The position numbers and the translations under genes were made by a program. From IMG/VR virus record IMGVR_UViG_3300047325_000072, positions 1 to 64,000 of that record: a DNA stretch of 64,000 nucleotides. One strand, given 5' to 3'. Position 1 is the stretch's first letter, and each line of letters begins with the position of its first letter. The DNA is from a virus. Below the pieces are notes generated by a model. The model ran no database searches and had not been told where the DNA came from. It was given only the letters and a program-made list of their open reading frames with translations. This document shows positions 2,377 through 25,646 of the stretch, piece after piece.

Positions 2377-2380
2377 AGCG

Positions 2381-4842: not shown

Positions 4843-4845
4843 GCG

Positions 4846-8177: not shown

Positions 8178-8283
8178 TCCGATATCTCATCAGGAAAATC
8201 AAATCGTCCGTCAAATCCTACAAGCCGGAGAACGACACATGAATTATGGCCCCAAATGGCTGGTCCGGTGGGGGAGACAATCA

Positions 8284-9172: not shown

Positions 9173-9178
9173 TAACAC

Positions 9179-9207
9179 TTTACTTACGGCTAAAAACCCC
9201 CTATAAG
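9179..9207 (+). promoter_or_regulatory. sigma70-like promoter P2
   Basis: TTTACT-N17-TATAAG with AATAATAAC upstream. Confidence 0.75.
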
Positions 9208-9243
9208 GGTTTTGCGTTTTAACCGGGGAGCCTCGATAACCGT

Positions 9244-9837
9244 ATGACTGAATTAGATATCGAACCGGCCCCAGAGCCGAGCGATGCCGAGCGGGCGCAC
9301 TGCTCAGAGTTGGCGCGACGGCTACAGGCGGAGGAGCGGGAGGTAATGCGCGCGACGGCTGCTCTCCAGCAGGCGTTGGACGCGTTAAGGATCACCCGTG
9401 AGCGCGACCTTCCGGAGGCGATGCGCGCCGCAGGTCAAAGCGAGTTTAAGCTGCTCGACGGCACTCCGGTTAAGCTGGAGGATCGCTACGATGCTGCGAT
9501 GCTCAAGAGCGAGGAAAACCCCGCTGGACTAGCCTACGTGCTGGAAAACGAGGGCGAAAGCCTGATCAAATGCATCGTAACGGTTGACTTCGACCGGGAT
9601 GACCGCCTAGCGGCTCATGCGCTCGCGGATCGGATCCGCGCGGAGAGCAACTCGGCGAAAGCGGTAAAGGTCGCCGAGTTTATTCACCACTCTACCTTAG
9701 CCGCATGGGTGCGGGAAATGGTCGAGGAAGGGCGAGACCCGCCTTTGGATACGCTAGGGGCGCATCGCACAACCCGCGCACGGGTAGGTGCTCGCGCTCC
9801 GAAAACTGTCGATTTAAAAGGTTTAGTACAACGTTAA
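9244..9837 (+). CDS. conserved replication-module protein of YuA/M6-like phages
   Basis: DLPEAM..G.SEFKL.DG, G.SLIK..V.V.F, IH.STL.AWVRE..E.G pattern; lies upstream of the SSB-like gene. Confidence 0.6.
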   Translation: MTELDIEPAPEPSDAERAHCSELARRLQAEEREVMRATAALQQALDALRITRERDLPEAMRAAGQSEFKLLDGTPVKLEDRYDAAMLKSEENPAGLAYVLENEGESLIKCIVTVDFDRDDRLAAHALADRIRAESNSAKAVKVAEFIHHSTLAAWVREMVEEGRDPPLDTLGAHRTTRARVGARAPKTVDLKGLVQR

Positions 9838-9852
9838 AGAGGGAGAAACTAC

Positions 9853-10683
9853 ATGCCAACACAAAAACATCTAACACCTAAGCCCGATGAAGTTCCGGCG
9901 ATCGACTACGGTGACTATGCGGCGGATGCCGGGGCCGGTCTGGAAGGGGGCCGGGCGGAGGAGTTGCTGCTTCCGTTTATCTACGTGCTGCAACCTCTAT
10001 CGCCGCAATTGGATAAGACCGGCGCCGGGTATGTGCCGGAGGCCGACGAGGGAATGTTTTTTAACACCTTGACGGGCCTAGTTTACGACGGCGCGACGGG
10101 GCTTGAGGGCGTGGCGGTCAACCGTGAGTACCTCTACACGGAGTGGAACCCGCGGGAAAAGGGCGGCGGTTTCAAGGGCACGCGCTCACCGGACGATGAT
10201 CTAGTGCGTCGCCTCAAGCGAGAGCAAGGGGCTTTCCAGGCTCTGCGCACGCCTGACGGTACCGACCTCGTGGAGCAGTTCAACCTCGCTATGATCCTCG
10301 GTCCCGCGCCGCTGTCGCTAGAAACCTGTTTTCAGGGGCTTATTCCGTTCAAATCGACATCGATCGGGGTTTACAAGGCGTTTTATTCGCGGGCCACGTC
10401 TTTCCGCTACAAAACTCCGAAAGGGATGATCACACCACCGATCTGGGCACACCGATGGCGCGTAACCACGGCCGCGATGAAGAACGATTCGGGCAGATGG
10501 TATAACCCCAAGTTTGAGCTTGTCAGCGGCCCCGAGCCGGCGCGATCGCTGCTGCCCGCAAGCGATCCGCTTTACGGCGAGGCCAAGCGGCTTAACGAGA
10601 TGTTTCGCGCCGGCCAGGTCCGCACCGACTATGAGGCGGGTCGCGAGCCAGGCGACGACGTAGACGATATACCACCGCTTTAA
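9853..10683 (+). CDS. probable ssDNA-binding protein
   Basis: DAGAG.E..LPF..LQ.LSPQ, Y.EW.PR..GGGF and an acidic tail DDVDDIPPL. Confidence 0.65.
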   Translation: MPTQKHLTPKPDEVPAIDYGDYAADAGAGLEGGRAEELLLPFIYVLQPLSPQLDKTGAGYVPEADEGMFFNTLTGLVYDGATGLEGVAVNREYLYTEWNPREKGGGFKGTRSPDDDLVRRLKREQGAFQALRTPDGTDLVEQFNLAMILGPAPLSLETCFQGLIPFKSTSIGVYKAFYSRATSFRYKTPKGMITPPIWAHRWRVTTAAMKNDSGRWYNPKFELVSGPEPARSLLPASDPLYGEAKRLNEMFRAGQVRTDYEAGREPGDDVDDIPPL

Positions 10684-10782
10684 CCCAGATCCCAGGGATG
10701 GCGCCGCGGTTTCTCTCCCAGCCGCGGTCCTCTCCCCGGTAGCCGGTCGCGCCCGAGTGCCGGTGGGATATAGTCGGGCAGC

Positions 10783-10823
10783 GCGGACGGCGACCATTTA
10801 TGAAGGTCGCCGTCCGCAGTTTT
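10783..10823 (+). terminator. intrinsic terminator-like hairpin
   Basis: Perfect 13-bp stem GCGGACGGCGACC/GGTCGCCGTCCGC, 9-nt loop, followed by AGTTTT. Confidence 0.6.
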
Positions 10824-10843
10824 CTATCGAAACGAGGGATACG

Positions 10844-11692
10844 ATGAAAATCATCCACCGATTTACCGGCGCGGTTCTTTTTGAACTAGAATGCGATTCG
10901 TTGAGGGTATGCGTCGAGGCAGCCATTAACAATGGCGTGAAACTCGGCGGCGCGAACCTCGGCGGCGCGAACCTCCGTGGCGCGAACCTGGCCGGTGCGA
11001 ACTTGGACATCTCGGACTTACACGGCGCAGACATGCGTGATGCGAACCTAAATGGCGCGAACCTAAATGGCGCGAACCTGCGCGGTGTGGACCTGCGGGG
11101 CGCGAGCCTCGACGGCGCGAACATGCGCTGTGTGGACCTGCGGGGAGCAAATCTCGACGGCGCGGAGATGCGCGGTGCGGACCTCGACGGCGCGAACCTC
11201 GGTGACGCGAACCTCGACGGCGCGAACCTCCGTGTCGCGAACCTCCGTGGCGCGAACCTCCGTGTCGCGAGCCTCCGTGTCGCGAACCTCGGCGGCGCGA
11301 ACCTCGGCGGCGCGAACCTCGGCGGCGCGAACCTCGGCGGCGCGAACCTCGACGGCGCGAACCTCGACGGCGCGAACCTCGGCGGCGCGAACCTCGGCGG
11401 CGCGAACCTCGGCGACGCGAACCTCGGCGACGCGAACCTCGGCGGCCACAAAGTTGACGGGACTGTCGGCATCATCCAGGCCGGCATGCCAAACAACTGG
11501 CACGCGTTCGGCTATGTCGATCGCGTAACGCGACAACTGCACGTGCGCGTCGGTTGCCGGAACAAAGAACTCGGCGAGGGACGCGCGTACTGGGCATCCC
11601 CAGATCACCCCGCTTTGGAAAAGCGACGCGAGGTCTTGGCCGCGCTCGATTATATCGAAGCAGTCGCACGTCTGCGCGGATGGGGGTCGTAA
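10844..11692 (+). CDS. pentapeptide-repeat protein, paralog 2
   Basis: Same flanking domains as paralog 1 with a longer repeat tract; GAGGG RBS. Confidence 0.9.
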   Translation: MKIIHRFTGAVLFELECDSLRVCVEAAINNGVKLGGANLGGANLRGANLAGANLDISDLHGADMRDANLNGANLNGANLRGVDLRGASLDGANMRCVDLRGANLDGAEMRGADLDGANLGDANLDGANLRVANLRGANLRVASLRVANLGGANLGGANLGGANLGGANLDGANLDGANLGGANLGGANLGDANLGDANLGGHKVDGTVGIIQAGMPNNWHAFGYVDRVTRQLHVRVGCRNKELGEGRAYWASPDHPALEKRREVLAALDYIEAVARLRGWGS

Positions 11693-11810
11693 TGACGGGA
11701 TCGGTGGCCGGACAATTATTTGAAAGGGGCAACGGCGTGGAAAACCAGGGCGACGAGACCGGCGATCTGCCGCCGGGCGAGTATGCGACAGCGAGGCAAG
11801 GGGTCGCCCC

Positions 11811-12464
11811 ATGAAAATCACTAACCGATTTACCGGCGCGGTTCTTTTTGAACTAGAATGCGATTCGTTGAGGGTATGCGTCGAGGCAGCCATTAACAAT
11901 GGCGCGAACCTCCGTGGCGCGAACCTTGACGGCGCGAACCTCCGTGGCGCGAACCTTGACGGCGCGAGCCTCTACGGCGCGAGCCTCGACGGCGCGAACC
12001 TCGACGACGCGAGCCTCTACGGCGCGAACCTCGACGGCGCGAACCTCGACGACGCGAGCCTCGGCGGCGCGAACCTCGGCGGCGCGAACCTCGGCGGCGC
12101 GAACCTCTACGGCGCGAACCTCGGCGGCGCGAACCTCGACGGCGCGAACCTCGGCGGCGCGAACCTCGGCGGCGCGATCCTCGGCGACGCGAACCTCGGC
12201 GACGCGAACCTCTACGGCCACAAAGTTGACGGGACTGTCGGCATCATCCAGGCCGGCATGCCAAACAACTGGCTCGCATTCGGCTATGTCGATCGCGTAA
12301 CACAACAACTGCACGTGCGCGTCGGTTGCCGGAACAAAGAAATCGGCGAGGGACGCGCGTACTGGTCATCCCCAGATCACCCCGCTTTGGAAAAGCGGCG
12401 CGAGGTCCTGGCCGCGCTCGATTACATCGAAGCAGTCGCACGTCTGCGCGGATGGGGGTCGTAA
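11811..12464 (+). CDS. pentapeptide-repeat protein, paralog 3
   Basis: Near-identical N- and C-terminal DNA to paralogs 1 and 2. Confidence 0.9.
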   Translation: MKITNRFTGAVLFELECDSLRVCVEAAINNGANLRGANLDGANLRGANLDGASLYGASLDGANLDDASLYGANLDGANLDDASLGGANLGGANLGGANLYGANLGGANLDGANLGGANLGGAILGDANLGDANLYGHKVDGTVGIIQAGMPNNWLAFGYVDRVTQQLHVRVGCRNKEIGEGRAYWSSPDHPALEKRREVLAALDYIEAVARLRGWGS

Positions 12465-12473
12465 TGACGGGAT

Positions 12474-12735
12474 CGGCGGCGCGAACCTGGCCGGTGCGAA
12501 CTTGGACATCTCGGACTTACACGGCGCAGACATGCGTGATGCGAACCTAAATGGCGCGAACCTGCGCGGTGTGGACCTGCGGGGCGCGAACATGCGGGTG
12601 CGGACCTGCGCGGCTCTAGGCGGTACGGCGCGGACATGCGCGGTGCGTACCTGGACGGTCGCGAACTTGAGCGGTACGAACCTGGGCGACTTGATCTCCA
12701 GGAGAGCACTTGAGTGCCGGTATTTCTCAAAATAG
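12474..12735 (+). pseudogene. orphan pentapeptide-repeat fragment
   Basis: Copies the internal paralog-2 tract (GCCGGTGCGAACTTGGACATCTCGGACTTACACGGCGCAGACATGCGTGAT), lacks both flanking domains and then frameshifts. Confidence 0.75.
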
Positions 12736-12738
12736 GAC

Positions 12739-12767
12739 TTTATTTTATCGGTTGGAGTGCTTATAAC
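12739..12767 (+). promoter_or_regulatory. sigma70-like promoter P3
   Basis: TTTATT-N17-TATAAC with AAAATAGGAC upstream; leader CTACCGAAAACGAGGAGA. Confidence 0.7.
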
Positions 12768-12796
12768 TGGTTCTACCGAAAACGAGGAGACGCCGT

Positions 12797-12994
12797 ATGA
12801 AGCTACTCGGATACACCTTCACTGAAATGACTGCCCAGGAATGGGAAATTTACAGGGGCGCCGAGCCGCACACGCTGATTTGTCATCTTGACGATCGCGA
12901 TCTTTTATACAATCCGGCGTCCGGTGTCTTGTCCGAGGTCATGTTCGATCAAAGCGGCAGCATGGTCCAGCGTGACTGGATCCGGCATATCTAA
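12797..12994 (+). CDS. hypothetical protein
   Basis: GAGGAG RBS; first gene after P3. Confidence 0.65.
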   Translation: MKLLGYTFTEMTAQEWEIYRGAEPHTLICHLDDRDLLYNPASGVLSEVMFDQSGSMVQRDWIRHI

Positions 12995-13044
12995 AACCTA
13001 TCGAGGGGTTTACCGACCCTTTCTACTCCAGGAGAAAATCTGTC

Positions 13045-14007
13045 ATGACGACCTATCTTATCGTTTACGGCCTAAATCCCGCCGATCGCTTTGCCGCTTA
13101 TAAGTTCGCCAATCGCCAGGACGCGATAACCGCGCGTCTTACGCCCACTGTCCCTGTTGACGGTTACGGCCGGTACCAGCCGGATCGGCCGGCTGAGGAT
13201 GTAAGGCCGGGGATTGGCGGCTGCGCCTATGTGATCGAAAAGGACGAGGACGTTCCTTTCGCTTTGCCGCGCCTCGCGGAGGTCTTCAACGCGCTTACCG
13301 GGCAGTCGATCGCGCGTTTCCGGGACAAGCCCACGGGGCTGAAGCGCCTGTTTGCCGCGTTGGCGGAGAGGGCCGTAGAGCCGTCCTCTGAACTTCCGGT
13401 GGAAAACCCCTATGTCCCTTCGGAAAACGAGCTTATAAACGTTCCCTCTTCAGACCAAGAGGATGAGGGAATGACGAACTCCGAAGAAGTAGCGGCGCCG
13501 GTCCAGATGGTAGAAACCATCGATTATGTGGATGTGGATCTAGAAGCCGCAGAGGCAGAGGCACCGAAGAAGCGACGCGGCCGGGCAACCCCCGAGGGGC
13601 GCACAACGCTGAAAGAACAGCAGGAGCGCTATAATGCGCTCGCTCGCGAGGCGACCCTCCTGGGCTTGAAGGCCAAGGAGCATACCGCCTTGTTCCAGTA
13701 CGAACGGGGCGAGAAGCAAATCGAAAAGCTCCGTGCCCGCATTGAGGAGGCTAAGGCTAATCCGCCGCGGCATCGTGAAGGGATGTCGAAGAAGCCGCGG
13801 CATCGTGAAGGGATGCCGAAGAAGTTGTCCGAAAACATGCAGGTCCTAGTGATTTCAGAGAGCAACCCCAAGCGTGCCGGCTCAAAGGCTGCGGGCTATT
13901 GGGAACATTATCGGAATGGTACAACCGTAGCCGAACTCATCGCGGCCGGGGTACCGCGCGCGGATATCGATTGGAATGCCAAGAAGGGTTTTATTACTCT
14001 TGGCTAA
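13045..14007 (+). CDS. phage protein with C-terminal NPKRxGS domain (putative DNA binding)
   Basis: NPKRAGSKA..Y..G.TVAE..G..DI.W..KGFI C-terminus; AGGAG RBS; 30-bp duplication at 13765-13824. Confidence 0.7.
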   Translation: MTTYLIVYGLNPADRFAAYKFANRQDAITARLTPTVPVDGYGRYQPDRPAEDVRPGIGGCAYVIEKDEDVPFALPRLAEVFNALTGQSIARFRDKPTGLKRLFAALAERAVEPSSELPVENPYVPSENELINVPSSDQEDEGMTNSEEVAAPVQMVETIDYVDVDLEAAEAEAPKKRRGRATPEGRTTLKEQQERYNALAREATLLGLKAKEHTALFQYERGEKQIEKLRARIEEAKANPPRHREGMSKKPRHREGMPKKLSENMQVLVISESNPKRAGSKAAGYWEHYRNGTTVAELIAAGVPRADIDWNAKKGFITLG

Positions 14008-14233
14008 GCTCCGCGCCAAGGATCTATGCCGGGCTGCGGAGGCGATTAAACTCGCCTCCGCTTCCTATTTCACAGTAGTTCGTTTAATTGGACCTGCGAG
14101 ATACTCCCGGAAAGAGTTTCCAAACCTAGAAACGGCACGCGCGTATCAAGTTCAACTAGGATGTGATGAGTATGGAAGGCAAGGCATGATCTATGCGGTC
14201 ACGTCTAGTGGGGAGAGTATCTTTGTCCAATAG
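14000..14233 (+). CDS. hypothetical protein
   Basis: Short ORF bridging adjacent genes; the TTG start is a guess. Confidence 0.5.
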   Translation: MAKLRAKDLCRAAEAIKLASASYFTVVRLIGPARYSRKEFPNLETARAYQVQLGCDEYGRQGMIYAVTSSGESIFVQ

Positions 14234-15254
14234 CAACAAGCCTTTGTTGTCAAACCACTCCGCTGCCTGGCACCATGAAAAGTTTGCTGAATTTATCGAA
14301 CGCAAACTGGAGATTGGTGAGCCTAGTCCGCATTTAGCTATAATGGGCTATCTCACACGAAATATGTCTGAGATGGATCGGGTTTGGGCATTAGGGTGCT
14401 ATGCGGCGACTTACTGTTTACCAAGTGCTCAAGTTATCTGGACATATTGGACTTACGCCCAGGCGTGCGAAAATAATGTTGAACTTGCCTCTTGGGTGCA
14501 TGAAAACTGGCCTGGTATTGTAACGCGAACTGAGCGTCGCTGTGTGCGCTCTCCGCAAAAAATGTATGAGTGTCTATCTAGTCTGGCTCGTTGGGTAGAG
14601 TCAAACTTCAGCATGCTTAAGTCTTTATCTCCGGAATTAAATCCCGCCAATTACGATAGAGTTTGGGACTCTGTAAGTCAGATTAAATTTTTCGGACGCT
14701 ATATTAACATCCGTTTCGTAGAGGGATTACGTCGTTACTGTGGCATTCCGGCCATGTTGTACGATATCCGCTCGATAGGCGGGTGGTCGCCCAAACGGGC
14801 GTTAGCTCTTCTCTATCCAGAACAAATAGAGAGGTTGCTAGTCGATGACTCAGAGGGAAATCTTCTTACTGAGAAGTTAGCGCGGGAACTTTTAGAAGGA
14901 CTTCAACCCCGTATACCTAAGTTGAATGAATATATCCTCGCCGCAATGCTTTGCGAGTACAAAGCCGGTTATGAGAACTATAAACAGTATCCAGGCTGGA
15001 CGATAGACCAAGAACCCTTGATGTATGATAAGGTCTATGCCTATTGGGGAGATCGGATAAATAAGAATTTACTCTGGGAAGCCCGAAGGGCGTTGTTTCC
15101 TCCTGAAGTTCTTGGTGAGTTGAACAACTGGAACGGCACGCGCTGGGATCTTACTCATGTACTTCGAGACGAAGGTTATATTTGGTCGGATTTAACATAT
15201 GATTACGAACGGAGCCGTGGAAATTTGGCCGATCCCTATCGGAGAGTAAGTTGA
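14223..15254 (+). CDS. aGPT-Pplase2-like (amino acid:DNA transferase family) thymidine-hypermodifying transferase
   Basis: W..TERR, FFGRY..FVE, LCEYK..YPG..D and WEARRALFP..L.E match the HhH-glycosylase-derived AADT family. TTG follows GGGGAGAG. Confidence 0.75.
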   Translation: MSNSNKPLLSNHSAAWHHEKFAEFIERKLEIGEPSPHLAIMGYLTRNMSEMDRVWALGCYAATYCLPSAQVIWTYWTYAQACENNVELASWVHENWPGIVTRTERRCVRSPQKMYECLSSLARWVESNFSMLKSLSPELNPANYDRVWDSVSQIKFFGRYINIRFVEGLRRYCGIPAMLYDIRSIGGWSPKRALALLYPEQIERLLVDDSEGNLLTEKLARELLEGLQPRIPKLNEYILAAMLCEYKAGYENYKQYPGWTIDQEPLMYDKVYAYWGDRINKNLLWEARRALFPPEVLGELNNWNGTRWDLTHVLRDEGYIWSDLTYDYERSRGNLADPYRRVS

Positions 15255-15706
15255 TAGAGCGTCGTCGTGGCGTCTTTAACGTAATTGTGCCTGACAGGCT
15301 CTATCAGCGTGGTCAAATACTCACTTGGACTCTAGAAAGTAAGCGACGCGCGTTTTCTGATGTCGGGATAACAGCTTATGTAAATTTATGGCCTAAGTTG
15401 GACCCAGACCTTGCACTACTCGATTTGGATTGGTATTTCCAGATACCGTGCCCCCGGTCTGAACAGGTATTGGAAGCGCGAGTAATAAGCGCTGCACGTA
15501 GCGTCGCGAACTATCTTTCGGATGATCTTACACGCCGCGCTCTTGTTCTCTGCGAAGCCGGACGTACGCGTTCAGTTTTCTTTTGCATTTTAGTTAAACA
15601 GTGTTTGCATAAACAAACCATGCTGGAATCTCGCGCGAATGTGTTGCGCGCCGTACCTGGGCATGCGCTGAAACGTTTTCACGAAGAGTGGCTTCAAAAG
15701 CAATAG
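15251..15706 (+). CDS. cysteine-based (PTP/dual-specificity fold) phosphatase
   Basis: CX5R loop VLCEAGRTRS; GITAYVNL strand; TTGA overlap with the upstream gene. Confidence 0.8.
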   Translation: MIERRRGVFNVIVPDRLYQRGQILTWTLESKRRAFSDVGITAYVNLWPKLDPDLALLDLDWYFQIPCPRSEQVLEARVISAARSVANYLSDDLTRRALVLCEAGRTRSVFFCILVKQCLHKQTMLESRANVLRAVPGHALKRFHEEWLQKQ

Positions 15707-15717
15707 GGGGAGAACTA

Positions 15718-16776
15718 ATGGGAAAGATACGTGTCGCGCTCGTAGGCGTGGGTAACTGTGCCAACGCTTTGCTCCAGGGTCTTAGCTATTACGACGATCC
15801 GGGGCGTACAGCCGGTCTTATGCACCCTAAAATCGGGCCTTACACTGTCGGCGATATCGAGGTTGTCGCGGCCTTCGACGTTATTCGAGGCAAGGTAGGG
15901 CAAAGTCTGCGAGATGCGGCCTATGCCGAGCCTAACGATACGCTAGATTTCGCGTCCATCGCTGCGAATCGCGATGTTTTGGTTAAGCGCGGCCCCACGC
16001 TTGACGGTCTGGGCGTCTATCTGCGGGAACGCGTAGTAGAATCTACGTTGCCGAGCGTAGATATAGCTGACGCGCTTCGAGAGACTGGAGCGGAAGTAGT
16101 CGTAAATTATCTTCCGGTTGGTTCTGAGTTTGCAGCAAGGCATTATGCCGGCGCAGCGCTTGAAGCACACTGCGCCTTTGTCAACTGCATGCCGACTTTT
16201 ATTGCTTCCGATCGCGAATGGGAAGCCCGCTTCCGTCGCGCGGGTCTTCCGATCGTTGGCGATGATGTTAAATCCCAGGTTGGTGCGACCATCGTACATC
16301 GGGCGTTAGCGCAACTTTTTCGAGATAGAGGAGTCGGTTTAGATCGCACAATGCAATTGAATGTCGGGGGAAATTCCGATTTTCTCAATATGTTACAGCG
16401 GGATCGACTAACATCTAAGAAAATATCCAAAACCCAGGCGGTTACGTCCATCGCGGGAGTCACATTCGCGTCGGGAGATATTCACGTCGGACCAAGCGAC
16501 CATATACCTTGGCTTACAGACCGAAAATGGGCTTACGTTCGATTAGAAGGCCTGGGCTTCGGCGGTGCGCCGCTAAATGCGGAGCTAAAGTTAGAAGTTT
16601 GGGATTCGCCTAACTCGGCCGGTGTGGTGGTTGACGCTATTCGATGCGCCAAGTTGGCACTTGACCGCGGAGAGAGCGGCGCCCTGCGCGCAGTTTCAGC
16701 CTATTTGATGAAATCGCCACCCGAGCAAAGCGACGACGATAAGGCGCGCCATGACCTGGAATGTTGGTTACAATGA
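15718..16776 (+). CDS. ino1: myo-inositol-1-phosphate synthase (bacterial/archaeal Ino1 type)
   Basis: GVGNCA Rossmann motif, YLPVGS, GDDVKSQVGAT, QLNVGGNSDFLNM, SKKISKT, GPSD, DRKWAY, WDSPNSAG, YLMKSPP. Confidence 0.95.
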   Translation: MGKIRVALVGVGNCANALLQGLSYYDDPGRTAGLMHPKIGPYTVGDIEVVAAFDVIRGKVGQSLRDAAYAEPNDTLDFASIAANRDVLVKRGPTLDGLGVYLRERVVESTLPSVDIADALRETGAEVVVNYLPVGSEFAARHYAGAALEAHCAFVNCMPTFIASDREWEARFRRAGLPIVGDDVKSQVGATIVHRALAQLFRDRGVGLDRTMQLNVGGNSDFLNMLQRDRLTSKKISKTQAVTSIAGVTFASGDIHVGPSDHIPWLTDRKWAYVRLEGLGFGGAPLNAELKLEVWDSPNSAGVVVDAIRCAKLALDRGESGALRAVSAYLMKSPPEQSDDDKARHDLECWLQ

Positions 16777-17315
16777 TCATAAACATCCGCGGCACAAACG
16801 GATCCGGTAAATCAACAATTGCCCGAGACTTTCTGGGAGATGCGATCGTCGAATTAGCACCTTATCAGACTCCGAAGGGCGCTCGGAAAAACGTTATGGG
16901 TTATCATAATCGTGGCCTAGACCTTATCGTTGTCGGGCCTTATCGCACTGCTTGTGGAGGCTGTGACGCAATCAAGACCCAGGATTTAGTCAAGGAAAGC
17001 GTGCGCATCGCGGCGAAGAAGGCACAACACGTCCTATTCGAAGGATTTATCGTTTCAGGTATATATAGCGGTTATCGCGCGCTTTCCCAAGAATTAGGCG
17101 GAATTACTTGGGCTTACCTAGATACTCCGATCGAGGTCTGCTTTGCACGTATCCAGGAGCGCAATGGAGGTAAATCAATTAAAGAATACAAGGTTGTTGA
17201 AAAGAACAAGGAGATTGAATCAACCCGATTGAAGGCTAAAAGAGACGGGGAGAAGGTCGTAACGATCCCGTACGAAAGCGCGATTGAGGCTGTAAGAGGG
17301 ATGCTTTCGGCATGA
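16773..17315 (+). CDS. P-loop kinase A, 5-hmdU DNA kinase family
   Basis: IINIRGTNGSGKST, GPY..GGCD, VLFEG, LDTP..C..R..R; ATGA overlap. Confidence 0.75.
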   Translation: MIINIRGTNGSGKSTIARDFLGDAIVELAPYQTPKGARKNVMGYHNRGLDLIVVGPYRTACGGCDAIKTQDLVKESVRIAAKKAQHVLFEGFIVSGIYSGYRALSQELGGITWAYLDTPIEVCFARIQERNGGKSIKEYKVVEKNKEIESTRLKAKRDGEKVVTIPYESAIEAVRGMLSA

Positions 17316-17860
17316 TCATCAACATCCGCGGAACCGGCGGCTCAGGGAAGAGCTACGTTGTACGCACTCTAATGGATCGCTTTAACGCGCAGCCAATCCT
17401 TGACGCAAGAGAAAAGATTCTCGGCTATGAGATGGACATCATAAAGACTTTTGTGTACGGTCCCTATAAGGCTGATTCCGGGGGCGTCGATAATCTTTCA
17501 AAAGAAGTTAGATCACAAGACTGTATAGAAGAAGAAGAAGTAAGATCTAGATCTAGGGACTATCACGTAATTTTTGAAGGACTGCTTGTTTCCGGAATCT
17601 ACGGCCGATGGCGAAATTTCGCGAAAACTGTCCCAGATTTCCGCTGGGTTTTCTTAAATACACCGCTTGAGCAGTGCATAGAGAACACCCGTGTGCGTCG
17701 TGTAAAAGCATCCCCCGATTTTAGTCTGAAAGCTACCGAGGATAAATACCGCAGTGTTCGCGCGCTCTACCATAAAACGCGCTACGATCGCCTAAACTCT
17801 TATGATGTTTCCTCGGACGAAGCGGTTGCGCTTATCGCGGGCTGGCTTACCACGCAATGA
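17312..17860 (+). CDS. P-loop kinase B, paralog of kinase A
   Basis: IINIRGTGGSGKS, GPY..GGVD, VIFEGLLVS, LNTPLEQC..RR; ATGA overlap. Confidence 0.75.
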   Translation: MIINIRGTGGSGKSYVVRTLMDRFNAQPILDAREKILGYEMDIIKTFVYGPYKADSGGVDNLSKEVRSQDCIEEEEVRSRSRDYHVIFEGLLVSGIYGRWRNFAKTVPDFRWVFLNTPLEQCIENTRVRRVKASPDFSLKATEDKYRSVRALYHKTRYDRLNSYDVSSDEAVALIAGWLTTQ

Positions 17861-18708
17861 TCATCGATCCTTTCCTCTATTGGATGCGTGAGCGCGAGGC
17901 GGTCCGACTGCGCCGTAAGAGCGGTCACCCGCCGCCTTGGACGGCGGAGCCGATCCTACAAACCTACCGATTTTGCAACGTTCGTCGCGAGGATGATAGG
18001 GTAACAGTTTGGATTCGTCAGCATATCCGCGAACCCTACGCCGATCATCCGGCGCTATGGTGGATGCTGTGTGCGGCGCGGATGATCAACTGGCCCGACT
18101 CTCTGGCGGAAATTATCGCTGCGGGCGCTTGGCCCGACCGGGCAAACTTCAATCCTGCCCAGATCGGAGAAGTTTTAGAGGCCCGGAAGCTGCGCGGCGA
18201 TAAAGTTGAAACCGGGGCTTATATGATCTCGGCGTCATATAAAACCGTTCCTTCCTGGTCCAGTTGGTCAAAACAACGCTACATCGCAGAGATTGTCTTG
18301 GGGCGGCTTTGGGACAAGCGAGAAGAGGTTTCCGCAACCCTGGAGGCAAAACACGCTTTCCTTACCGAGCATCGCGGCTGGGGGCCGTTTATGGCATGGC
18401 AAGCGGTCGCTGACATGTGTTTTACCTCGATCCTGGCCGCTGCCCCGGATCGACACTCCTGGGCAGCGGCCGGCCCCGGCACGATCCGGGGCCTGAACCG
18501 ACTGCATGAGCGCCCGGTAAAGCAAACACTCTCGCAGAAGAAAGCACTTGCGGAGCTTAGGGATGTCTACCCAATCCTGTTAAAAGAATCAGGTATTGAG
18601 TTTGACTGGATCGACGTGATGAATATCATGTGCGAAACGGATAAATTCCTGCGTGTAAAGAACGGCGAAGGTAGACCTCGCTCGCTTTTTACCCCTTTAC
18701 TTACCTAA
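17857..18708 (+). CDS. aGPT-Pplase1 / 5-hmdU DNA kinase helical domain protein
   Basis: PWT..ILQTYRFCNVRREDDR, R.INWP, GAYMI, G.GPFMA.Q..D, GPG..RGLNR, CETDK..R..G.GRPR. Confidence 0.88.
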   Translation: MIIDPFLYWMREREAVRLRRKSGHPPPWTAEPILQTYRFCNVRREDDRVTVWIRQHIREPYADHPALWWMLCAARMINWPDSLAEIIAAGAWPDRANFNPAQIGEVLEARKLRGDKVETGAYMISASYKTVPSWSSWSKQRYIAEIVLGRLWDKREEVSATLEAKHAFLTEHRGWGPFMAWQAVADMCFTSILAAAPDRHSWAAAGPGTIRGLNRLHERPVKQTLSQKKALAELRDVYPILLKESGIEFDWIDVMNIMCETDKFLRVKNGEGRPRSLFTPLLT

Positions 18709-18724
18709 CCTTTTCGCCTATAAA
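18696..18724 (+). promoter_or_regulatory. sigma70-like promoter P4
   Basis: TTTACT-N17-TATAAA. Confidence 0.7.
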
Positions 18725-18813
18725 ACTGCTTATGGGCATACATAAACGATCGATCGGTCGGAGCACACGCCACCCTATGTTTTCAAAGCCTTGAACTGCG
18801 AGGTTTGATCGCG

Positions 18814-19143
18814 ATGGAATCTATGGAACATGTCTATCTTTGCCACAAATGCGGTGGATTACTTACGCGACACAACGCCGACCCGGCATTATACGGTTGC
18901 GGCTGCATGTCGGGATATATTCGTGACTGGCAGTATCCAACGCCAGTCACCGAACTTCGTTCTATTCAACTCGACGCTTGCCGTGAAACGTTAGCCTTAT
19001 ATCAGCGTCAAGGCCGCGATCCTGACGGCGACCTTATTCGCAAAACACTTGCGCGTATCAAAGCGTTGGAATCGGCTCGGTCCGGCTCAAGGAATTGCAC
19101 TCGGGGCGAAAGGGCGTCTTGCGTTACGGGCGGCTCAAAATAA
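18814..19143 (+). CDS. small putative Zn-binding protein
   Basis: CHKC...CGC; start uncertain (18805/18814/18823). Confidence 0.55.
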   Translation: MESMEHVYLCHKCGGLLTRHNADPALYGCGCMSGYIRDWQYPTPVTELRSIQLDACRETLALYQRQGRDPDGDLIRKTLARIKALESARSGSRNCTRGERASCVTGGSK

Positions 19144-19179
19144 CGACCTAGGGTCTTTGTTTGTACCGGAGAAAAGAAG

Positions 19180-20244
19180 ATGTACGTAATCCGCAAGCGC
19201 AATGCCCACCGCGCATTACCTTATGGCCTGCGCCATCTTAACGAGGTCGGTCAACCGGAGGGAAGCCGCGACGGCGACGTGATCGTTGCGCCGGGGCCGG
19301 TCGCTACGGTCTATGACTGCCCGGTGGAGCGCGTTGTTTTTTGGCCTGAACGTGACGCTAATCCGTTTTTTCATCTTTTTGAGTCGTTGTGGATGCTAGC
19401 GGGGCGTAATGACCTGGCTCTGCCACAGTGCTTCGTTAAGAGCTTCGACCGCTTTTCGGATGACGGTGTGACGCTGCATGGCGCTTACGGACATCGTTGG
19501 AGGAATTGGCCGGGCGATCAGCTTGACCGCATTGTCGATTTGATGAGCGGCCATAGTCGTACTCGGCGCGCGGTCCTAACGATGTGGGATCCTGACCGCG
19601 ACCTGTTCCCGGAGCAGGGCAAGGATGTTCCTTGCAACACGACCATCTATTTTTCCGAGAGTTATGGCCGTGCCAACGAACGCAATCGTCTCGATATGAT
19701 GGTCTGCTGTCGCTCAAACGATATTGTCATGGGCCTTTACGGGGCAAATGCTGTCCATTTTTCTATGCTGATGGAATATATGGCCGCGCGTTTAGACCTT
19801 GAGGTCGGAACGATGACCACGATATCGAATAATTTTCACAGCTATGCACGCGACTACAACCGGATACGCACCGGCGCCCTCGCGCTTTGGGGACCGATTT
19901 GGGATGATTGCCCTTACGCTAGGGAGGAGGTAAAGCCCTTCCCCTTGGTGGACGACCCTAGTAGTTGGGATCAGGAGCTTCTTTTCATGCTATCAGCCGC
20001 TGAGGCCAAATCCGAAGACCGGATACGCACCGGCGCCATATGGAAAAACTCCTTTTTCCCTCGGGTAGTGTTGCCAATGTATTTAGCACACGAGGCTTGG
20101 CGGGCGGGCGACTGGCTGCGTGCCGGTTACTACACGCGGGAGATTGCCGCGAGCGATTGGCAGCTTGCTGTCGCCCAATGGCTACTCCGCCGTGCGGCTA
20201 AAGCTGGCATGACATCGATACCCGAATTAGTTGGGATTTGGTAA
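19180..20244 (+). CDS. thymidylate synthase-fold enzyme, probable dUMP hydroxymethylase
   Basis: RDANPFFH..ESLWMLAGRND, GAYG.RWR, RRAVL.MWD, DVPCN (catalytic Cys), RSND..GLYGAN (Asn at the dUMP-specificity position), NNFH.Y. Confidence 0.85.
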   Translation: MYVIRKRNAHRALPYGLRHLNEVGQPEGSRDGDVIVAPGPVATVYDCPVERVVFWPERDANPFFHLFESLWMLAGRNDLALPQCFVKSFDRFSDDGVTLHGAYGHRWRNWPGDQLDRIVDLMSGHSRTRRAVLTMWDPDRDLFPEQGKDVPCNTTIYFSESYGRANERNRLDMMVCCRSNDIVMGLYGANAVHFSMLMEYMAARLDLEVGTMTTISNNFHSYARDYNRIRTGALALWGPIWDDCPYAREEVKPFPLVDDPSSWDQELLFMLSAAEAKSEDRIRTGAIWKNSFFPRVVLPMYLAHEAWRAGDWLRAGYYTREIAASDWQLAVAQWLLRRAAKAGMTSIPELVGIW

Positions 20245-20753
20245 TGATAACCGACGACCTTCTCCGCGCGAGTCTAGGTACTACAGACCGGCTCGCGCTG
20301 CGCCTGCGCGGCGGCGGGGTGCGCCGTTATCATACTCATCCGGGCGTTTCTCCGCAGTCCGTAGCCGAGCACTCCTGGCGAGCCGCGGTGATCGCGCACT
20401 ATCTGTGGCCCGATCGATCGCACTTGTTGCGCGCCGTTATCCTACACGATGTTGCTGAGGCTTTGATAGGCGACCTTCCGGCGCCGACCAAGCGCATGGA
20501 CGCCGGTGCGGCATTAACCGATTTGGAAACCGAATACGAAAAATATATCGGTATTTCCAGGTTTATGAGCCTTGATTCGGAAGATCAAACAAGATTGAAA
20601 ATCGTTGATTACGCCGAGCTTTGTCTTCATGTGAAAAGCTGTCGAACCGAAGACGAAATCCTCTGTTACAACAATGCTAAGAAGTATGTAGTAGACCTGC
20701 TACAGAAACTCCCATGGGAGGAAGAAAGGATTAGAAAAATACTCGACATATAA
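20244..20753 (+). CDS. YfbR-like HD-domain nucleotide hydrolase
   Basis: RRYH..QSVAEHS, LHD.AE..GDLPAPTK, D..E. Confidence 0.85.
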   Translation: MITDDLLRASLGTTDRLALRLRGGGVRRYHTHPGVSPQSVAEHSWRAAVIAHYLWPDRSHLLRAVILHDVAEALIGDLPAPTKRMDAGAALTDLETEYEKYIGISRFMSLDSEDQTRLKIVDYAELCLHVKSCRTEDEILCYNNAKKYVVDLLQKLPWEEERIRKILDI

Positions 20754-20763
20754 GACCCGTATT

Positions 20764-21342
20764 ATGAAGGGTATAATTCTCTTCGAGGGCGCCGATAGCA
20801 GCGGCAAGACCACCCTTGCACGCTACTTCGTAAAGAAACACGGCGCGCATTATATTCACGGCCGCGTACACAAAGACGCTTGGAAATGGCATAACGCCGC
20901 TATCCGCCGGGCGTTGCGTTTCCGGGAGCGGGGCGAGCTTACCGTTATCGATCGCAACTACATTTCTCATTTAGTTTATGGGCGCGTTTTTAACAATCAG
21001 CAATACGACGCGAAGGCTCGTCTTTTAGACGATATCCTGCGGCGCAACGGCGCACTAACGGTGCTTTGTTCTCCCGACGATCAACTCCGCCAAATAGCCC
21101 GCTGGGAGGAGGAAAAGGCGGCTGGGCGATCCGAGGCATTTGACAGGATCAAAGAGGTTGTCGCGCTTTACGCCGATCTGGCCCGCGGTAATGTCGCCCA
21201 TCCGGGCAACGGTTATCTTGATGAAATGATACGCTTCGGAGATTTCTCCGAGCGGCAGGATGTTTTAATTTACGACGTTCATAAATATTGGGGAAATCCA
21301 GCCCCGGCAGCAAGAGCTATATTGAGAAGGCTGCATGGCTAG
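20764..21342 (+). CDS. dNMP (thymidylate-type) kinase
   Basis: EGADSSGKTT and VIDR..S..VYG. Confidence 0.75.
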   Translation: MKGIILFEGADSSGKTTLARYFVKKHGAHYIHGRVHKDAWKWHNAAIRRALRFRERGELTVIDRNYISHLVYGRVFNNQQYDAKARLLDDILRRNGALTVLCSPDDQLRQIARWEEEKAAGRSEAFDRIKEVVALYADLARGNVAHPGNGYLDEMIRFGDFSERQDVLIYDVHKYWGNPAPAARAILRRLHG

Positions 21343-23359
21343 TCGCATCCAGCTTTCTTTGTTTGCGCCGCCTCTGCCTTCGGTAACGCCCGGAGAGGCT
21401 AAGGCTAAGGACTATTCGGACCCCTTCCTAGCCTACCACAAAGAGGCATTGGATGCGGCAGACAGCGACCGCTTGACCTTCGACAATGCAACTTGGAACC
21501 GCGCCGAGACGAGTGCAGTCGGGGTTGATGTTGAGAGCTACCGTAATTTCTTCCTGGTTTGTTTTACACGCTTTTCGGACAGCAAACGTCTGGCTTTTGA
21601 AGCATCTAATCGTTCGGAATTAAACCTCAAGGCAATTAAATGGTTGCTCAAGAAAAACCAAATCATAACTTTCAACGGTAACTGTTACGATCTACCGATG
21701 CTGTTGGCCGCGCTACAAGGCAGCAACCCACAGGAGTTAAAGCGCCTGTCGGATCGCTTGATTTCCGGGGAAGGCCAGCGTTGGTGGCAGGCCGAGCAGG
21801 ACTTCGATCGGTTTGGTATAAAATTAGACCATATTGACCTGATCGATACAAATCCCTCCGTCCGCCAAGGTCTCAAGATGCTCGGCGGTCGATTGCACAC
21901 CCGTTTTATGGTTGACCTTCCCTATGACCCCGACGCGGTATTAACCCCGCGACAAATGAACGTCGTTACTCTCTATTGCTTTAACGATATTGCTATGCTT
22001 GGTGATTTGTTCGCTGCATTGCGCGAGCCTCTTGAACTGCGTATTGCGCTCGGCGAGCTATACGGATTGCAACTGCGCTCGCGCAGCGACGCCCAGGTGG
22101 GCGAGGCGATCGTTAAGAAACGCGTCGAGATCGCTACAGGGCGCCGTCTAGGCCGCGCTGAGCCGCCGAAAGGATCTTTCTTTTTGTACGAGCCGCCTGC
22201 ATTTCTTTCTTTCCAAGACGAAAGATTATCGGGCCTGGTTGATAAGTTGAAGACAACTTCATTTACCCTAAGTGGTCTCGGAAAGCCTGAGATGCCCGAG
22301 TTGCTGAAAAAATTCAGCTATACCCGCGGCATGACAACCTACAAGTTTGGCATCGGCGGTATTCATTCCCAGGAAGCCCACCGGGCGCTGCGCGCCGACG
22401 ATGAATGGGCTATCGAGGACGTGGACGTTGCTTCACAATATCCTAATATTATCGTTAAGCTCGGGCTTTACCCTCCGGCCATCGGACCGATCTTCCTGGA
22501 CGTTTATGGCGAGTCGATTACCCAGCGGCTTGCTGCAAAGGATCGTTTGCTGCGCGATGCAACAGTAAGCGAGGCCGAATGCCAAACGTTGAAAGTCCTC
22601 GTTGACGGATACCGAATCCAGCTAAACGGGGTTTATGGAAAGCTCGGCTCGCCGGGATTGCTTCATGCGCCCAACCTTCTTATCGCGGTTACGGTTACGG
22701 GTCAGCTTTCCATTTTGATGCTTGCCGATATGGCGGAGCGGCGCGGATTGCCGGTTGTCTCCGCCAACACGGATGGCTTGGTGTTTCGCTATCGGCGCGC
22801 GCATCGTTCTATTCTAAACGAGGTACTAGCCGAATGGGAATCGGCCACGGGTTTTCAGACTGAGCGGACGCCTTACGAGGAGATCTATAATTCTTCGGTC
22901 AACACTTATATCGCGCTCAAACCTGGCGGAAAAGCAAAGGTCAAAGGGCCGATCGCGGACCCTTGGACCGAGGGCGATCTGCGCGGGCAGATGATGAAAA
23001 ATCCGCAAATGACAGTTCTGACGCAAGCCGTTTTGGCGCTTCTAACCAAGGGCGTGCCCCTCGGGGAAACGATACAGACGACAAACGATCCGCGCGCTTT
23101 CGTAACAGTGGTAAAGGTTGCGGCCGGCGCCCGTTGGCGCAACCATTATCTAGGCCGCGCAGTGCGCTATTATTGGGCGCTTGACGGCGACCCGATTATG
23201 ACGGCCGACGGCGCCCGGAGAATAGGGAAGACAGAAGGCGCGCGACCCATCCAGGAACTGGAGGATCGTGTACCTTCAGATCTTGATCGGCTCCGCTACT
23301 ACGAGGAAAGCGTTCGATTAGCCCACGATCTCGGGGTTAGCGAGGGGCAGATACGATGA
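21335..23359 (+). CDS. family B-like phage DNA polymerase with 3'-5' exonuclease
   Basis: Exo DVE, FNG..YD, YC.ND; pol DVASQYP, RIQLNGVYGK, ANTDG, VN.Y..K.KG. Confidence 0.88.
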   Translation: MASRIQLSLFAPPLPSVTPGEAKAKDYSDPFLAYHKEALDAADSDRLTFDNATWNRAETSAVGVDVESYRNFFLVCFTRFSDSKRLAFEASNRSELNLKAIKWLLKKNQIITFNGNCYDLPMLLAALQGSNPQELKRLSDRLISGEGQRWWQAEQDFDRFGIKLDHIDLIDTNPSVRQGLKMLGGRLHTRFMVDLPYDPDAVLTPRQMNVVTLYCFNDIAMLGDLFAALREPLELRIALGELYGLQLRSRSDAQVGEAIVKKRVEIATGRRLGRAEPPKGSFFLYEPPAFLSFQDERLSGLVDKLKTTSFTLSGLGKPEMPELLKKFSYTRGMTTYKFGIGGIHSQEAHRALRADDEWAIEDVDVASQYPNIIVKLGLYPPAIGPIFLDVYGESITQRLAAKDRLLRDATVSEAECQTLKVLVDGYRIQLNGVYGKLGSPGLLHAPNLLIAVTVTGQLSILMLADMAERRGLPVVSANTDGLVFRYRRAHRSILNEVLAEWESATGFQTERTPYEEIYNSSVNTYIALKPGGKAKVKGPIADPWTEGDLRGQMMKNPQMTVLTQAVLALLTKGVPLGETIQTTNDPRAFVTVVKVAAGARWRNHYLGRAVRYYWALDGDPIMTADGARRIGKTEGARPIQELEDRVPSDLDRLRYYEESVRLAHDLGVSEGQIR

Positions 23360-23613
23360 TAATCAATCAGGCTGTATTAGACGCCAATTGGGGGCCAGAG
23401 TATCTTGCCTCTATGGTTTTACTTCGTCGAGGTTCGGAACTTACTCTCTACTATTACAGAGATTTAGTTAAAATGTCCCGCGGTGAGATTTTGCCGTCTA
23501 GCGCGGCCGACAGCAAATCAATCCGCTCAATCCATATCGGCCGCGCTGCGGCAGCTTTGGTTCGGTTGCGCGAATTGCTAACCGTTGAGCAATGGGAGGC
23601 CTTAACAAAATGA
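23356..23613 (+). CDS. hypothetical protein
   Basis: ATGA overlaps on both sides. Confidence 0.6.
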   Translation: MIINQAVLDANWGPEYLASMVLLRRGSELTLYYYRDLVKMSRGEILPSSAADSKSIRSIHIGRAAAALVRLRELLTVEQWEALTK

Positions 23614-24083
23614 TCTTATCAGCGCAAAGCATACGCAAACTGTGCGTACCTGACCCTCTACCTCTAATTACACCCTTCTCTGAGCGCGGCGTCATCCGTG
23701 GCCGATCCTACGGACTATCGGCTTGCACCTACGACTGCCGCATTGCCCATCCCCTTGTTGTTCCGGTGGGGAAATTCCGGCTGGCTGTGACGATGGAAAA
23801 ATTCAACTTCCCGGCTTGGCTATGCGGATCGGTGCTGGATAAATCCTCTTGGGCGCGGGTCGGGATATCAGCTTTTAATACACATTTTGACCCCGGTTTC
23901 TGCGGCTATGCGACGCTTGAACTAGTAAATCTTGGCCCTGATCCGGTAGAGTATTTAGAAGGTGATCCGGTTTGTCAGTTCATGTTTCACTTATTGGATG
24001 AACCGACCGAGATGCCTTACGCTGGGAAATATAACCAACAACCTAAAGAGCCAGTCCCGGCTCGTTACGAAGAGGAAATATGA
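23610..24083 (+). CDS. dcd: dCTP deaminase
   Basis: SYGLS..YD.R, KSSWAR.G, DPGF.G..TLE..N, Q..F, Y.GKY..Q. Confidence 0.9.
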   Translation: MILSAQSIRKLCVPDPLPLITPFSERGVIRGRSYGLSACTYDCRIAHPLVVPVGKFRLAVTMEKFNFPAWLCGSVLDKSSWARVGISAFNTHFDPGFCGYATLELVNLGPDPVEYLEGDPVCQFMFHLLDEPTEMPYAGKYNQQPKEPVPARYEEEI

Positions 24084-24832: not shown

Positions 24833-24890
24833 GGGAGCGGCCGGGGAGATCATGATGAGCCTATCGGCCAGCAAACAAAGGGGGGCACGT

Positions 24891-25646
24891 ATGATCAAAC
24901 TCCGGATAATGTCCGACCTGCATTTGGAGTTTGGTAAACTGGTCCTGAAACCTATCGGAGAGGACGTTTTGATCCTGGCCGGCGACATCGGAGTCTATAC
25001 GGACGGCGCGCGCTGGGCTGCGCGGTATGCCCGGACTTATGGGGTGCCTGTCGTCATGATCGCTGGAAACCATGAGTTTTACCGCGACGATTGGCATTAT
25101 CATCATACAATCGCAACAACTTTGCATGACATTCGGCGCATATCTCCTCTAACTTTTCTTGAGGACGAGATTGCTAATATTTGCGGAATTACCTTTGCCG
25201 GAAGCACTCTTTGGACAGATTTCGCCTTAAACGGCGATCCCGTTCTAGGAATGCGCGATGCTCGCGAAGCAATGAATGATTATCGTGAAATATTCTGGAA
25301 TGAGACTTTACGTCTTACGCCGGAGCTTACAGTACAAAAGCATCAAGGGTCCTTGAAGTTTTTGAAGGAAATCCAAGACTCGGGAAAGCTAGTTATTATA
25401 ACGCATCATTTGCCGTCGTCCCGGTCTATCGCGGGGCGCTACGCGGATAATGCCTACAACGCCGCGTATGCGTCCAACTTGGACACGCTTGTCGAAACGA
25501 GCGGTGCAGCGCTTTGGATACACGGCCATACACACGTCAGCCAGGATTATTGCATCGGTAACACGCGTGTTATCTGTAACCCGCGGGGCTATGCGGGCTA
25601 TGAAGTTAATCCAAATTTCAATCCAGATTTGATCATCGAAGTCTGA
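24891..25646 (+). CDS. calcineurin-like metallophosphoesterase
   Basis: SDLH, AGDI, GNHE, THH, HGHTH. Confidence 0.9.
   Translation: MIKLRIMSDLHLEFGKLVLKPIGEDVLILAGDIGVYTDGARWAARYARTYGVPVVMIAGNHEFYRDDWHYHHTIATTLHDIRRISPLTFLEDEIANICGITFAGSTLWTDFALNGDPVLGMRDAREAMNDYREIFWNETLRLTPELTVQKHQGSLKFLKEIQDSGKLVIITHHLPSSRSIAGRYADNAYNAAYASNLDTLVETSGAALWIHGHTHVSQDYCIGNTRVICNPRGYAGYEVNPNFNPDLIIEV

Follow-up and report, generated by a model that had tools for sequence, protein, structure and literature searches.

Described thymidine hypermodification systems

Thymidine hypermodifications made by a DNA kinase and an amino-acid:DNA transferase (ADDT) all start, as far as they are known, from amino acids or polyamines. 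An operon that places such enzymes beside Ino1, a homologue of myo-inositol-3-phosphate (= L-myo-inositol-1-phosphate) synthase, is located at positions 14223-18708 of the DNA stretch analysed here. This window comprises the first 64,000 nucleotides of IMG/VR record IMGVR_UViG_3300047325_000072, an uncultured phage with a genome of 95,558 bases that is complete according to CheckV. The operon is rather likely to encode a hypermodification of the kind described for phages M6, PaMx11 and ViI, in which a cyclitol supply replaces the amino-acid tailoring and the ADDT joins inositol or inositol-3-phosphate through an oxygen atom to phosphorylated 5-hydroxymethyl-2′-deoxyuridine (5-hmdU). If true, this would add cyclitols, as a new chemical class, to the DNA substituents made by the known kinase and ADDT route; no earlier use of inositol on nucleic acids turned up in the literature search. 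The search for inositol linked to a DNA base yielded nothing relevant in the open full-text literature, a coverage that leaves out most subscription journals, and such a link goes unmentioned in the three key papers.

Pseudomonas phage M6 carries a gene cluster for 5-aminoethyl-2′-deoxyuridine (5-NedU). Its record encodes, in this order, an ADDT (gp51), a pyridoxal phosphate (PLP) decarboxylase (gp52), a radical S-adenosylmethionine (SAM) isomerase (gp53), a kinase (gp54), gp55, a hydroxymethylase (gp58), an HD hydrolase (gp59), a polymerase (gp62) and a deaminase (gp65). Together, gp54 and gp51 suffice for the attachment of glycine on 5-hmdU DNA, gp55 being dispensable in vitro (PMC8989533). 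From the ADDT to the HD hydrolase, the order is the same as in the window, where a phosphatase and Ino1 fill the slot of gp52 and gp53 (PMC8989533). The hydroxymethylase homologue of the window is 44% identical to gp58, and an HD hydrolase stands in the same position as gp59. Common to M6 and, by prediction, to the window is the logic of a 5-hmdU that is made before replication, phosphorylated on the DNA and then substituted. M6 has one kinase in a 59-kb genome, whereas the window phage has two in 96 kb. No similarity was detectable between the window polymerase and gp62; the resemblance to M6 therefore stops short of the replicase.

The glycinyltransferase of phage PaMx11 (gp46, PUGT) acts on 5-phosphomethyl-2′-deoxyuridine (5-PmdU) and has been solved structurally (8Z2M, 8Z2N). 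Its Trp146, part of an FGPW motif, holds the carboxylate of glycine (PMC11472151). The nucleophilic residue is Cys247, and the corresponding cysteine is essential in M6 gp51 and in gp247 of Salmonella phage ViI. The ViI pathway to 5-aminoethoxymethyl-2′-deoxyuridine (5-NeOmdU) involves two paralogous DNA kinases (gp67 and gp243), as in the window. The ViI ADDT, gp247, uses the hydroxyl group of serine and forms an ether at the C5 methylene (O-serinyl-T), a precedent for an oxygen nucleophile (PMC8989533). The same chemistry is proposed here. In ViI, the nucleophile is serine and a PLP-dependent decarboxylation follows.

Base J of kinetoplastids, beta-D-glucosyl-hydroxymethyluracil, likewise bears a C6 polyol on the oxygen of 5-hydroxymethyluracil (5-hmU). 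Its glucose is taken from UDP-glucose by a glycosyltransferase and held by an acetal (glycosidic) bond. In contrast, the window cluster is devoid of a glycosyltransferase and the genome of a gene of the TET-associated glycosyltransferase (TAGT) family, and the predicted link is an ether to a carbocycle.

Organization of the operon

The operon consists of six translationally coupled genes, arranged head to tail on the + strand. They encode an ADDT, a small dual-specificity phosphatase (DSP) of the CX5R type, Ino1, two 5-hmdU DNA kinases (A and B) and an HMUDK_hel protein. Family matches in Pfam and inspection of the junctions bear out the gene order that the initial annotation had described. 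ADDT was formerly named aGPT-Pplase2, and HMUDK_hel is the former aGPT-Pplase1. The ADDT gene (14223..15254, with an alternative ATG at 14193) and the DSP gene (15251..15706, 151 aa) share a TTGA overlap, the TTG start of the latter overlapping the stop codon of the former. An 11-nt gap separates the DSP from Ino1 (15718..16776, 352 aa, in an open reading frame (ORF) from 15688), whose ATG at 15718 is preceded by GGGGGAG, a strong ribosome-binding site. Kinase A (16773..17315, ORF from 16761) overlaps Ino1 by ATGA if its start is placed at 16773, which gives the N-terminus MIINIRG, identical to that of kinase B. The junctions of kinase A with kinase B (17312..17860) and of kinase B with HMUDK_hel (17857..18708) are both ATGA overlaps. 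In total, three ATGA overlaps and one TTGA overlap of 4 nt each, and the one gap, connect the six genes.

The ADDT, a predicted group transferase on 5-PmdU in DNA, matches PF18724 with 49.6 bits (cut-off 26.2), covering positions 56-213 of 232 of the profile. An AlphaFold model (pLDDT 94.2) found PaMx11 PUGT as the best match in the PDB, with TM scores of 0.51-0.61 and a probability of 1.0 for 8Z2N and 8Z2M, a weak E-value of 6e-3 and 16% identity. [quoted passage not shown] PUGT was recovered in the fold search only, as the ADDT profile found nothing among the PDB sequences. The assignment of 14223-15254 to the ADDT homologues, made initially from the sequence, is thus upheld by the family profile and by a glycinyltransferase as the closest solved structure. 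Cys244 is invariant in 32 members of the clade and aligns with the cysteine of M6 gp51. The alignment shows that the nucleophilic cysteine and the Arg-rich DNA loop of PUGT are kept. The glycine-binding motif differs: the window ADDT reads FGRY instead of the FGPW of glycine transferases, with Tyr for Trp146 and Arg for the adjacent Pro. A C-terminal extension of about 50 residues is common to the window's clade only.

Ino1 is about 60% identical to the Ino1 of Mycobacterium tuberculosis and matches PF01658 (Inos-1-P_synth) with 113.8 bits (E 5e-33). The alignment with the M. tuberculosis enzyme (1GR0) extends over the full length (residues 3-349 on 15-363; E 1e-133) and includes the blocks GDD-KSQ-GAT, NVGGN-DFLNM, SKKISKTQ and DSPNSAG. 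The match to Ari2 (6K96), a synthase of a five-membered cyclitol phosphate, reaches only E 6e-58. In NCBIfam, TIGR03450 scored 488.8 bits, below the equivalog cut-off of 638. The protein is a close relative of Ino1 rather than a certified equivalog, and its sequence points to myo-inositol-3-phosphate as the most likely product.

Both kinases are P-loop proteins that pass PF18748 (HMUDK_HMUD1; 54.4 bits for A and 39.4 bits for B, cut-off 27) and are paralogues with 28% identity. HMUDK_hel matches PF18723 with 150.7 bits (cut-off 25, E 7e-44) and is an orthologue of M6 gp55 (44% identity, E 2e-85). The Pfam name of this family is now kinase helical domain. The protein may serve as a DNA-binding partner of the kinases. 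Initially, the last gene had been annotated as aGPT-Pplase1. Its family membership holds, but gp55 is not needed for the group transfer in vitro, and therefore only one transferase is credited to the window (PMC8989533).

Recurrence of Ino1 beside modification genes

A scan of IMG/VR with a viral Ino1 profile returned 243 contigs with an Ino1 relative. The best 80 of these were taken, and 64 non-identical Ino1 genes were left after removal of identical copies. An ADDT lies next to, or within 4 kb of, 45 of the 64. The expectation that ino1 co-occurs with such transferase genes elsewhere is thereby confirmed. Within 4 kb of an ADDT of the window type, followed by a DSP and a kinase, are 27 of the 64 loci; in another 18, the neighbour is an ADDT from a different clade, after which come a phosphatase of the HAD family with about 125 residues and a kinase. 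Five Ino1 genes are found inside 7-deazaguanine clusters (FolE/QueC/DpdA/QueE), four beside a small HAD only, and ten have no partner with the query set used. For scale, contigs with a 5-hmdU DNA kinase account for about 5 in 10,000 of IMG/VR2 (PMC8989533). The gene set is thus widespread, and the majority of the Ino1 contigs examined carry it in modification clusters. Chance does not explain the grouping, because the same set recurs in dozens of independent viral contigs.

In a quick maximum-likelihood tree, a long branch with 97% support lies between the two ADDT clades that are linked to Ino1, the DSP type and the small-HAD type; the association with Ino1 has therefore persisted over a deep divergence. 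Both clades have an altered FGPW motif: the window type reads GRY, that of Caulobacter phage Cr30 reads GRM, and the catalytic cysteine is kept in each. The conserved core of Ino1, phosphatase, ADDT and kinase contains no ligase and no glycosyltransferase, and direct transfer is therefore the simplest chemistry.

The operon region had no megablast match among 50,697 phage records, and tblastn of the ADDT against phages gave only weak matches, in three Microbacterium phage records; the window-type ADDT was found in no cultured phage. Cr30 (KF301602) combines within about 9 kb (2709-11602) a Tet_JBP dioxygenase, an ADDT (E 1e-52), a weakly TAGT-like gene, Ino1, a small HAD and a P-loop kinase. 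Ralstonia phage RP13 encodes HMUDK_hel, Ino1, a small HAD and an HMUD2 kinase, and published work describes a heavy modification of its DNA by a group not yet identified (PMC13697223, PMC12686479). Both phages differ from the window in an ADDT of the other clade, a candidate one in RP13, and in a HAD phosphatase instead of the DSP. The 5-hmU of Cr30 probably originates from a thymine dioxygenase acting on DNA, whereas the window encodes a hydroxymethylase homologue. The Ino1 domain was absent from Caulobacter, E. coli, Synechococcus and others among 14 control genomes; Cr30 cannot rely on its host for inositol, because the host genus Caulobacter lacks the domain. Together with the Menderavirus group of Stenotrophomonas phages, Cr30 and RP13 are cultured carriers of the kit with laboratory hosts, in which the prediction is directly testable.

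The Cr30 product annotated as 'SNF2 DNA repair protein' holds the Tet_JBP domain (E 9e-23), 2 kb upstream of the ADDT. This gene content suggests that Cr30, a widely used laboratory transducing phage, probably possesses a post-replicatively hypermodified thymine. In RP13, ORF118 (590 aa, 1826-3598) was matched by the Cr30 ADDT in tblastn and falls on a long branch in the Cr30-type clade, with no Pfam call. Judging from these matches, RP13 may possess a divergent ADDT; the paper of 2026 reported a clade-1 gene only.

Proposed pathway

Homology to M6 suggests that four enzymes encoded downstream of the operon, namely a dCTP deaminase, a hydroxymethylase, an HD hydrolase and a deoxynucleoside monophosphate (dNMP) kinase, would replace dTTP by 5-hmdUTP, and that the polymerase would write 5-hmdU into the DNA. 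Kinases A and B, perhaps with the gp55-like helical protein, would phosphorylate the base on the DNA, as their families indicate. Ino1 would convert glucose-6-phosphate into myo-inositol-3-phosphate, as its identity of about 60% to the M. tuberculosis enzyme suggests. The gene linkage is consistent with a subsequent attack of the conserved ADDT cysteine on C6, by which the phosphate would be expelled. A hydroxyl group of inositol-3-phosphate or of free inositol would then add to the exocyclic methylene, comparable to serine in ViI. The basic DSP might finally act on the DNA and strip the phosphate from attached inositol phosphate, from unreacted 5-phosphomethyl groups, or from both. The expected product is 5-(inosityl-oxymethyl)-2′-deoxyuridine (C16H24N2O11, 420.138 Da), with an ether rather than a glycosidic link. 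The computed formula is that of the base J nucleoside, and the isobaric masses predicted initially are correct. The modification may therefore already hide in mass-spectrometric surveys, mistaken for base J.

Two sources of the transferred group are conceivable. The window genome was searched and has no gene for an inositol monophosphatase (IMPase), a HAD_2 hydrolase or a TAGT of its own. An IMPase-family gene is present in all 14 control genomes; free inositol could therefore come from a host enzyme. Another route would be a direct transfer of inositol-3-phosphate, which the DSP would then trim on the DNA. The initial proposal that Ino1 supplies the substituent installed by the ADDT gains from the ADDT homology and from the linkage in 45 of 64 loci, and the product remains a predicted one.

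ADDT specificity and loci lacking Ino1

Several observations weigh against an inositol-bearing base. The argument for it combines guilt by association with homology, and every chemical step is inferred. The ADDT of the window is 17% identical to M6 gp51 and has no FGPW motif, and the metal ligands Glu243 and Thr244 of PUGT are not conserved, being replaced by Ala-Ala in the alignment; the substrate cannot be read from such a sequence. The census was limited to the 80 contigs closest to the query, many of which may be related phages. Ino1 and its phosphatase also occur in deazaguanine clusters without any ADDT, so that their use is not tied to ADDT chemistry alone. Finally, two complete genomes with terminal repeats (L135 and L117) carry an ADDT of the same clade together with a DSP and a kinase, and Ino1 nowhere. 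One ADDT from an Ino1-less complete genome falls in a well-supported clade with Ino1-linked ADDTs. The ADDT clade of the window therefore does not require phage-made inositol.

The Ino1-less genomes were detected in a reciprocal scan with a profile of the window-type ADDT, built from five close sequences, which returned 45 loci. Nearly every one of these has a DSP behind the ADDT, while many lack Ino1. The neighbours of Ino1-less ADDTs include a TAGT (L104, 7001-10166; L106, 7001-9775) or a radical SAM-SPASM enzyme (L135, 6060-8876; L132, 6321-9436). These four loci all keep the DSP and the kinase, and their gene content indicates that they probably encode further undescribed thymidine modifications. 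In L117, the neighbour is an unassigned gene. A location of Ino1 elsewhere on the contigs of Ino1-less ADDT loci was considered and applied to one of ten records (L120, 9 kb away); it was false for the two complete genomes.

Such loci suit an ADDT that takes a common metabolite of the host as its substrate, whether an amino acid or a phosphorylated alcohol, with inositol either added later by an unrecognised step or modifying a target other than thymine. Every ADDT characterised so far works with glycine or serine (PMC8989533, PMC11472151), the Ino1-less loci pair the enzyme with radical SAM-SPASM or TAGT genes, and two loci (L024 and L038) carry a radical-SAM gene in addition to Ino1. This explanation is nevertheless unlikely, as no enzyme of the four-gene core could join inositol to the adduct of an amino acid, both Ino1-linked clades have another residue in place of the Trp that binds glycine, and the window genome has no TAGT. 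The analysis also indicates that ADDT enzymes may accept nucleophiles other than amino acids.

Function of the phosphatase

The DSP contains the motif VLCEAGRTRS, a P-loop CEAGRTRS of the C-x5-R-S type. The window protein alone had no Pfam match, whereas homologues from other contigs pass PF00782 (DSPc) with 42.2, 40.9 and 37.7 bits (cut-off 33.5). Cys101 and Arg107 are invariant in 28 homologues, and the C-x5-R motif is present in all 45 extracted proteins. A family profile of the 28 proteins matches DUSP10 at E 6e-19, and the AlphaFold model (pLDDT 94.4) has a DUSP fold with a TM score of 0.75 to DUSP5/7/9. About 30 residues before the Cys, at the site of the general-acid Asp, most homologues read P-x-x-D-G; in the window DSP and the four proteins nearest to it, the stretch reads PCPRSE or similarly and lacks the Asp. 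An inositol or phytate phosphatase, to which the fold had been compared initially, gained no specific support: model and family profile indicate a generic atypical DUSP fold, and PTPMT1 appeared only at rank 36 of the fold matches.

The DSP tracks the ADDT clade and persists without Ino1. In one subclade, a HAD_2 hydrolase stands between Ino1 and the ADDT, and the DSP is still there. Computed isoelectric points are high (9.6 for the window DSP, median 9.0 for the family): the DSPs share their basic character with the helical protein and the DNA kinases, and Ino1 and the HAD enzymes have acidic values. The DSP therefore belongs to the ADDT and kinase chemistry, and it probably acts on DNA, outside the production of inositol, as far as sequence features tell. 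The small HAD travels with Ino1 even without an ADDT and is therefore the better candidate for the inositol-phosphate phosphatase. Of the initial proposal, the presence of a phosphatase stands, while its role in freeing inositol has become doubtful. The analysis exposes a putative DNA-linked cysteine phosphatase.

The same properties accommodate an inositol phosphate that stays on the DNA. The ADDT would transfer inositol-3-phosphate and the DSP would only clear unreacted 5-PmdU, leaving a phospho-cyclitol nucleoside of 500.104 Da. The association of the DSP with ADDT and kinase rather than with Ino1, its coexistence with HAD_2, its basic character and the lack of an IMPase or HAD_2 gene in the window genome are all compatible with this outcome, and phosphate-bearing thymine side chains are known from SP-15 and Carin-5 (PMC12686479). 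It is judged somewhat less probable than the transfer of a host metabolite. In the other architecture, the small HAD always accompanies Ino1, even without an ADDT, as would be expected if the kit normally yields free inositol, and a DSP that reaches DNA-bound phosphate would probably remove the inositol phosphate, too.

Ino1 outside ADDT clusters

Stenotrophomonas phage Moby (MN095772) encodes at 8234-13648 FolE, Ino1, a HAD protein of 123 aa, QueC, a DpdA-like tRNA-guanine transglycosylase and QueE. Its relatives likewise place Ino1 and the small HAD between FolE and QueC. No ADDT, HMUDK_hel or thymidylate-synthase-fold gene was found in Moby or these relatives. The same placement of Ino1 and the HAD phosphatase in a deazaguanine cluster was observed in four further contigs (L073, L079, L081 and L083). 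The gene neighbourhood hints at an inositol-linked deazaguanine derivative.

Three of the loci with a small HAD only or with no partner were inspected with Pfam. In all three, Ino1 or its small HAD is immediately followed by an HMUDK_hel-like gene, and two of them have thymidylate-synthase-like genes nearby. In L089 (6797-12890), L077 (5089-11132) and L097 (8001-10447), Ino1, with a small HAD in the former two, is followed by an HMUDK_hel-like protein of 363-519 aa. This arrangement is a fourth context of the inositol kit. The surroundings in L089 comprise a thymidylate-synthase-like enzyme, a dCMP deaminase and a C5 cytosine methylase-like gene.

A more far-reaching proposal, put forward tentatively, is that phages own a portable cyclitol kit of Ino1 and a phosphatase, which serves several unrelated activation systems for DNA bases and leads to a whole family of inositol-bearing bases on more than one nucleobase, the window phage making an ether-linked inosityl-thymidine. 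Under this proposal, the kit would plug into ADDT and kinase on thymine, into aGPT-Pplase1-like proteins and into DpdA/QueC on 7-deazaguanine.

The ten of 64 loci without a modification partner might instead indicate that Ino1 and the phosphatase form an auxiliary metabolic module unrelated to DNA that merely travels along in operons of early nucleotide metabolism; its product might be an osmolyte, a signal or a molecule for counter-defence. Unrelated metabolic genes do gather in the early regions of phages. The translational coupling of Ino1 within the operon and the adjacency kept across two deeply split ADDT clades and the deazaguanine clusters make such a module improbable, more so than either of the preceding alternatives; of the loci without a partner, several lie on short contigs, and others hold HMUDK_hel-like genes. 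Least probable of all is a different carbocycle, made by an Ino1-like enzyme from, for instance, another sugar phosphate as in Ari2: the family includes 6K96 and the window protein scores 489 against the equivalog cut-off of 638 bits, but it resembles the authentic Ino1 of M. tuberculosis far more closely, with all conserved blocks, and eight aligned viral Ino1 sequences have 104 invariant columns.

Genes flanking the operon

Downstream of the operon, all genes described here are on the + strand as far as the dCTP deaminase. An ORF of 112 aa (18805..19143) between the modification genes and the hydroxymethylase matched nothing in Pfam, PHROG or NCBIfam, and it is uncertain whether it is a real gene. 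The dUMP hydroxymethylase homologue (19180..20244) has the thymidylate-synthase fold (PF00303, 69 bits; phrog_5131, E 2e-98). Its VPCN and GANAVHF segments align with LPCN and GANAVHF of M6 gp58, so that the catalytic Cys is present, as is the Asn of GANA, the residue that specifies dUMP in thymidylate synthases. An HD-domain hydrolase resembling the 5′-deoxynucleotidase YfbR (20238..20753; PF13023, E 1e-10; PF12917, E 3e-9) is predicted to probably clear the thymidine nucleotide pool. A thymidylate-type dNMP kinase (20764..21342) passes PF13521 with 31.1 bits (cut-off 27) and matches phrog_761 (E 5e-10), while PF02223 remained under its cut-off of 27 with 25.0 bits. The DNA polymerase (21335..23359; phrog_1252, E 5e-146) is followed by a dCTP deaminase-like enzyme (23592..24083; PF22769, E 7.5e-18; phrog_1663, E 4e-41), the predicted supplier of dUTP or dUMP. 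All five enzymes that had been assigned downstream on first reading were identified by profile or homologue matches.

Two ORFs on the - strand at 54107-56097, earlier called glycosyltransferase-like, had no Pfam match at E 0.05. A few genes past the polymerase, a calcineurin-like metallophosphoesterase is encoded at 24852-25646 (phrog_1649, E 3e-51). The family match suggests that it could have a part in the handling of nucleotides or DNA phosphate. Just upstream of the operon, at 9853-12464, a Pam3_Gp34-like protein and two pentapeptide-repeat proteins (E 2e-49 and 3e-33) are encoded. Pentapeptide-repeat proteins are able to mimic DNA, and for this pair an anti-defence role is possible.

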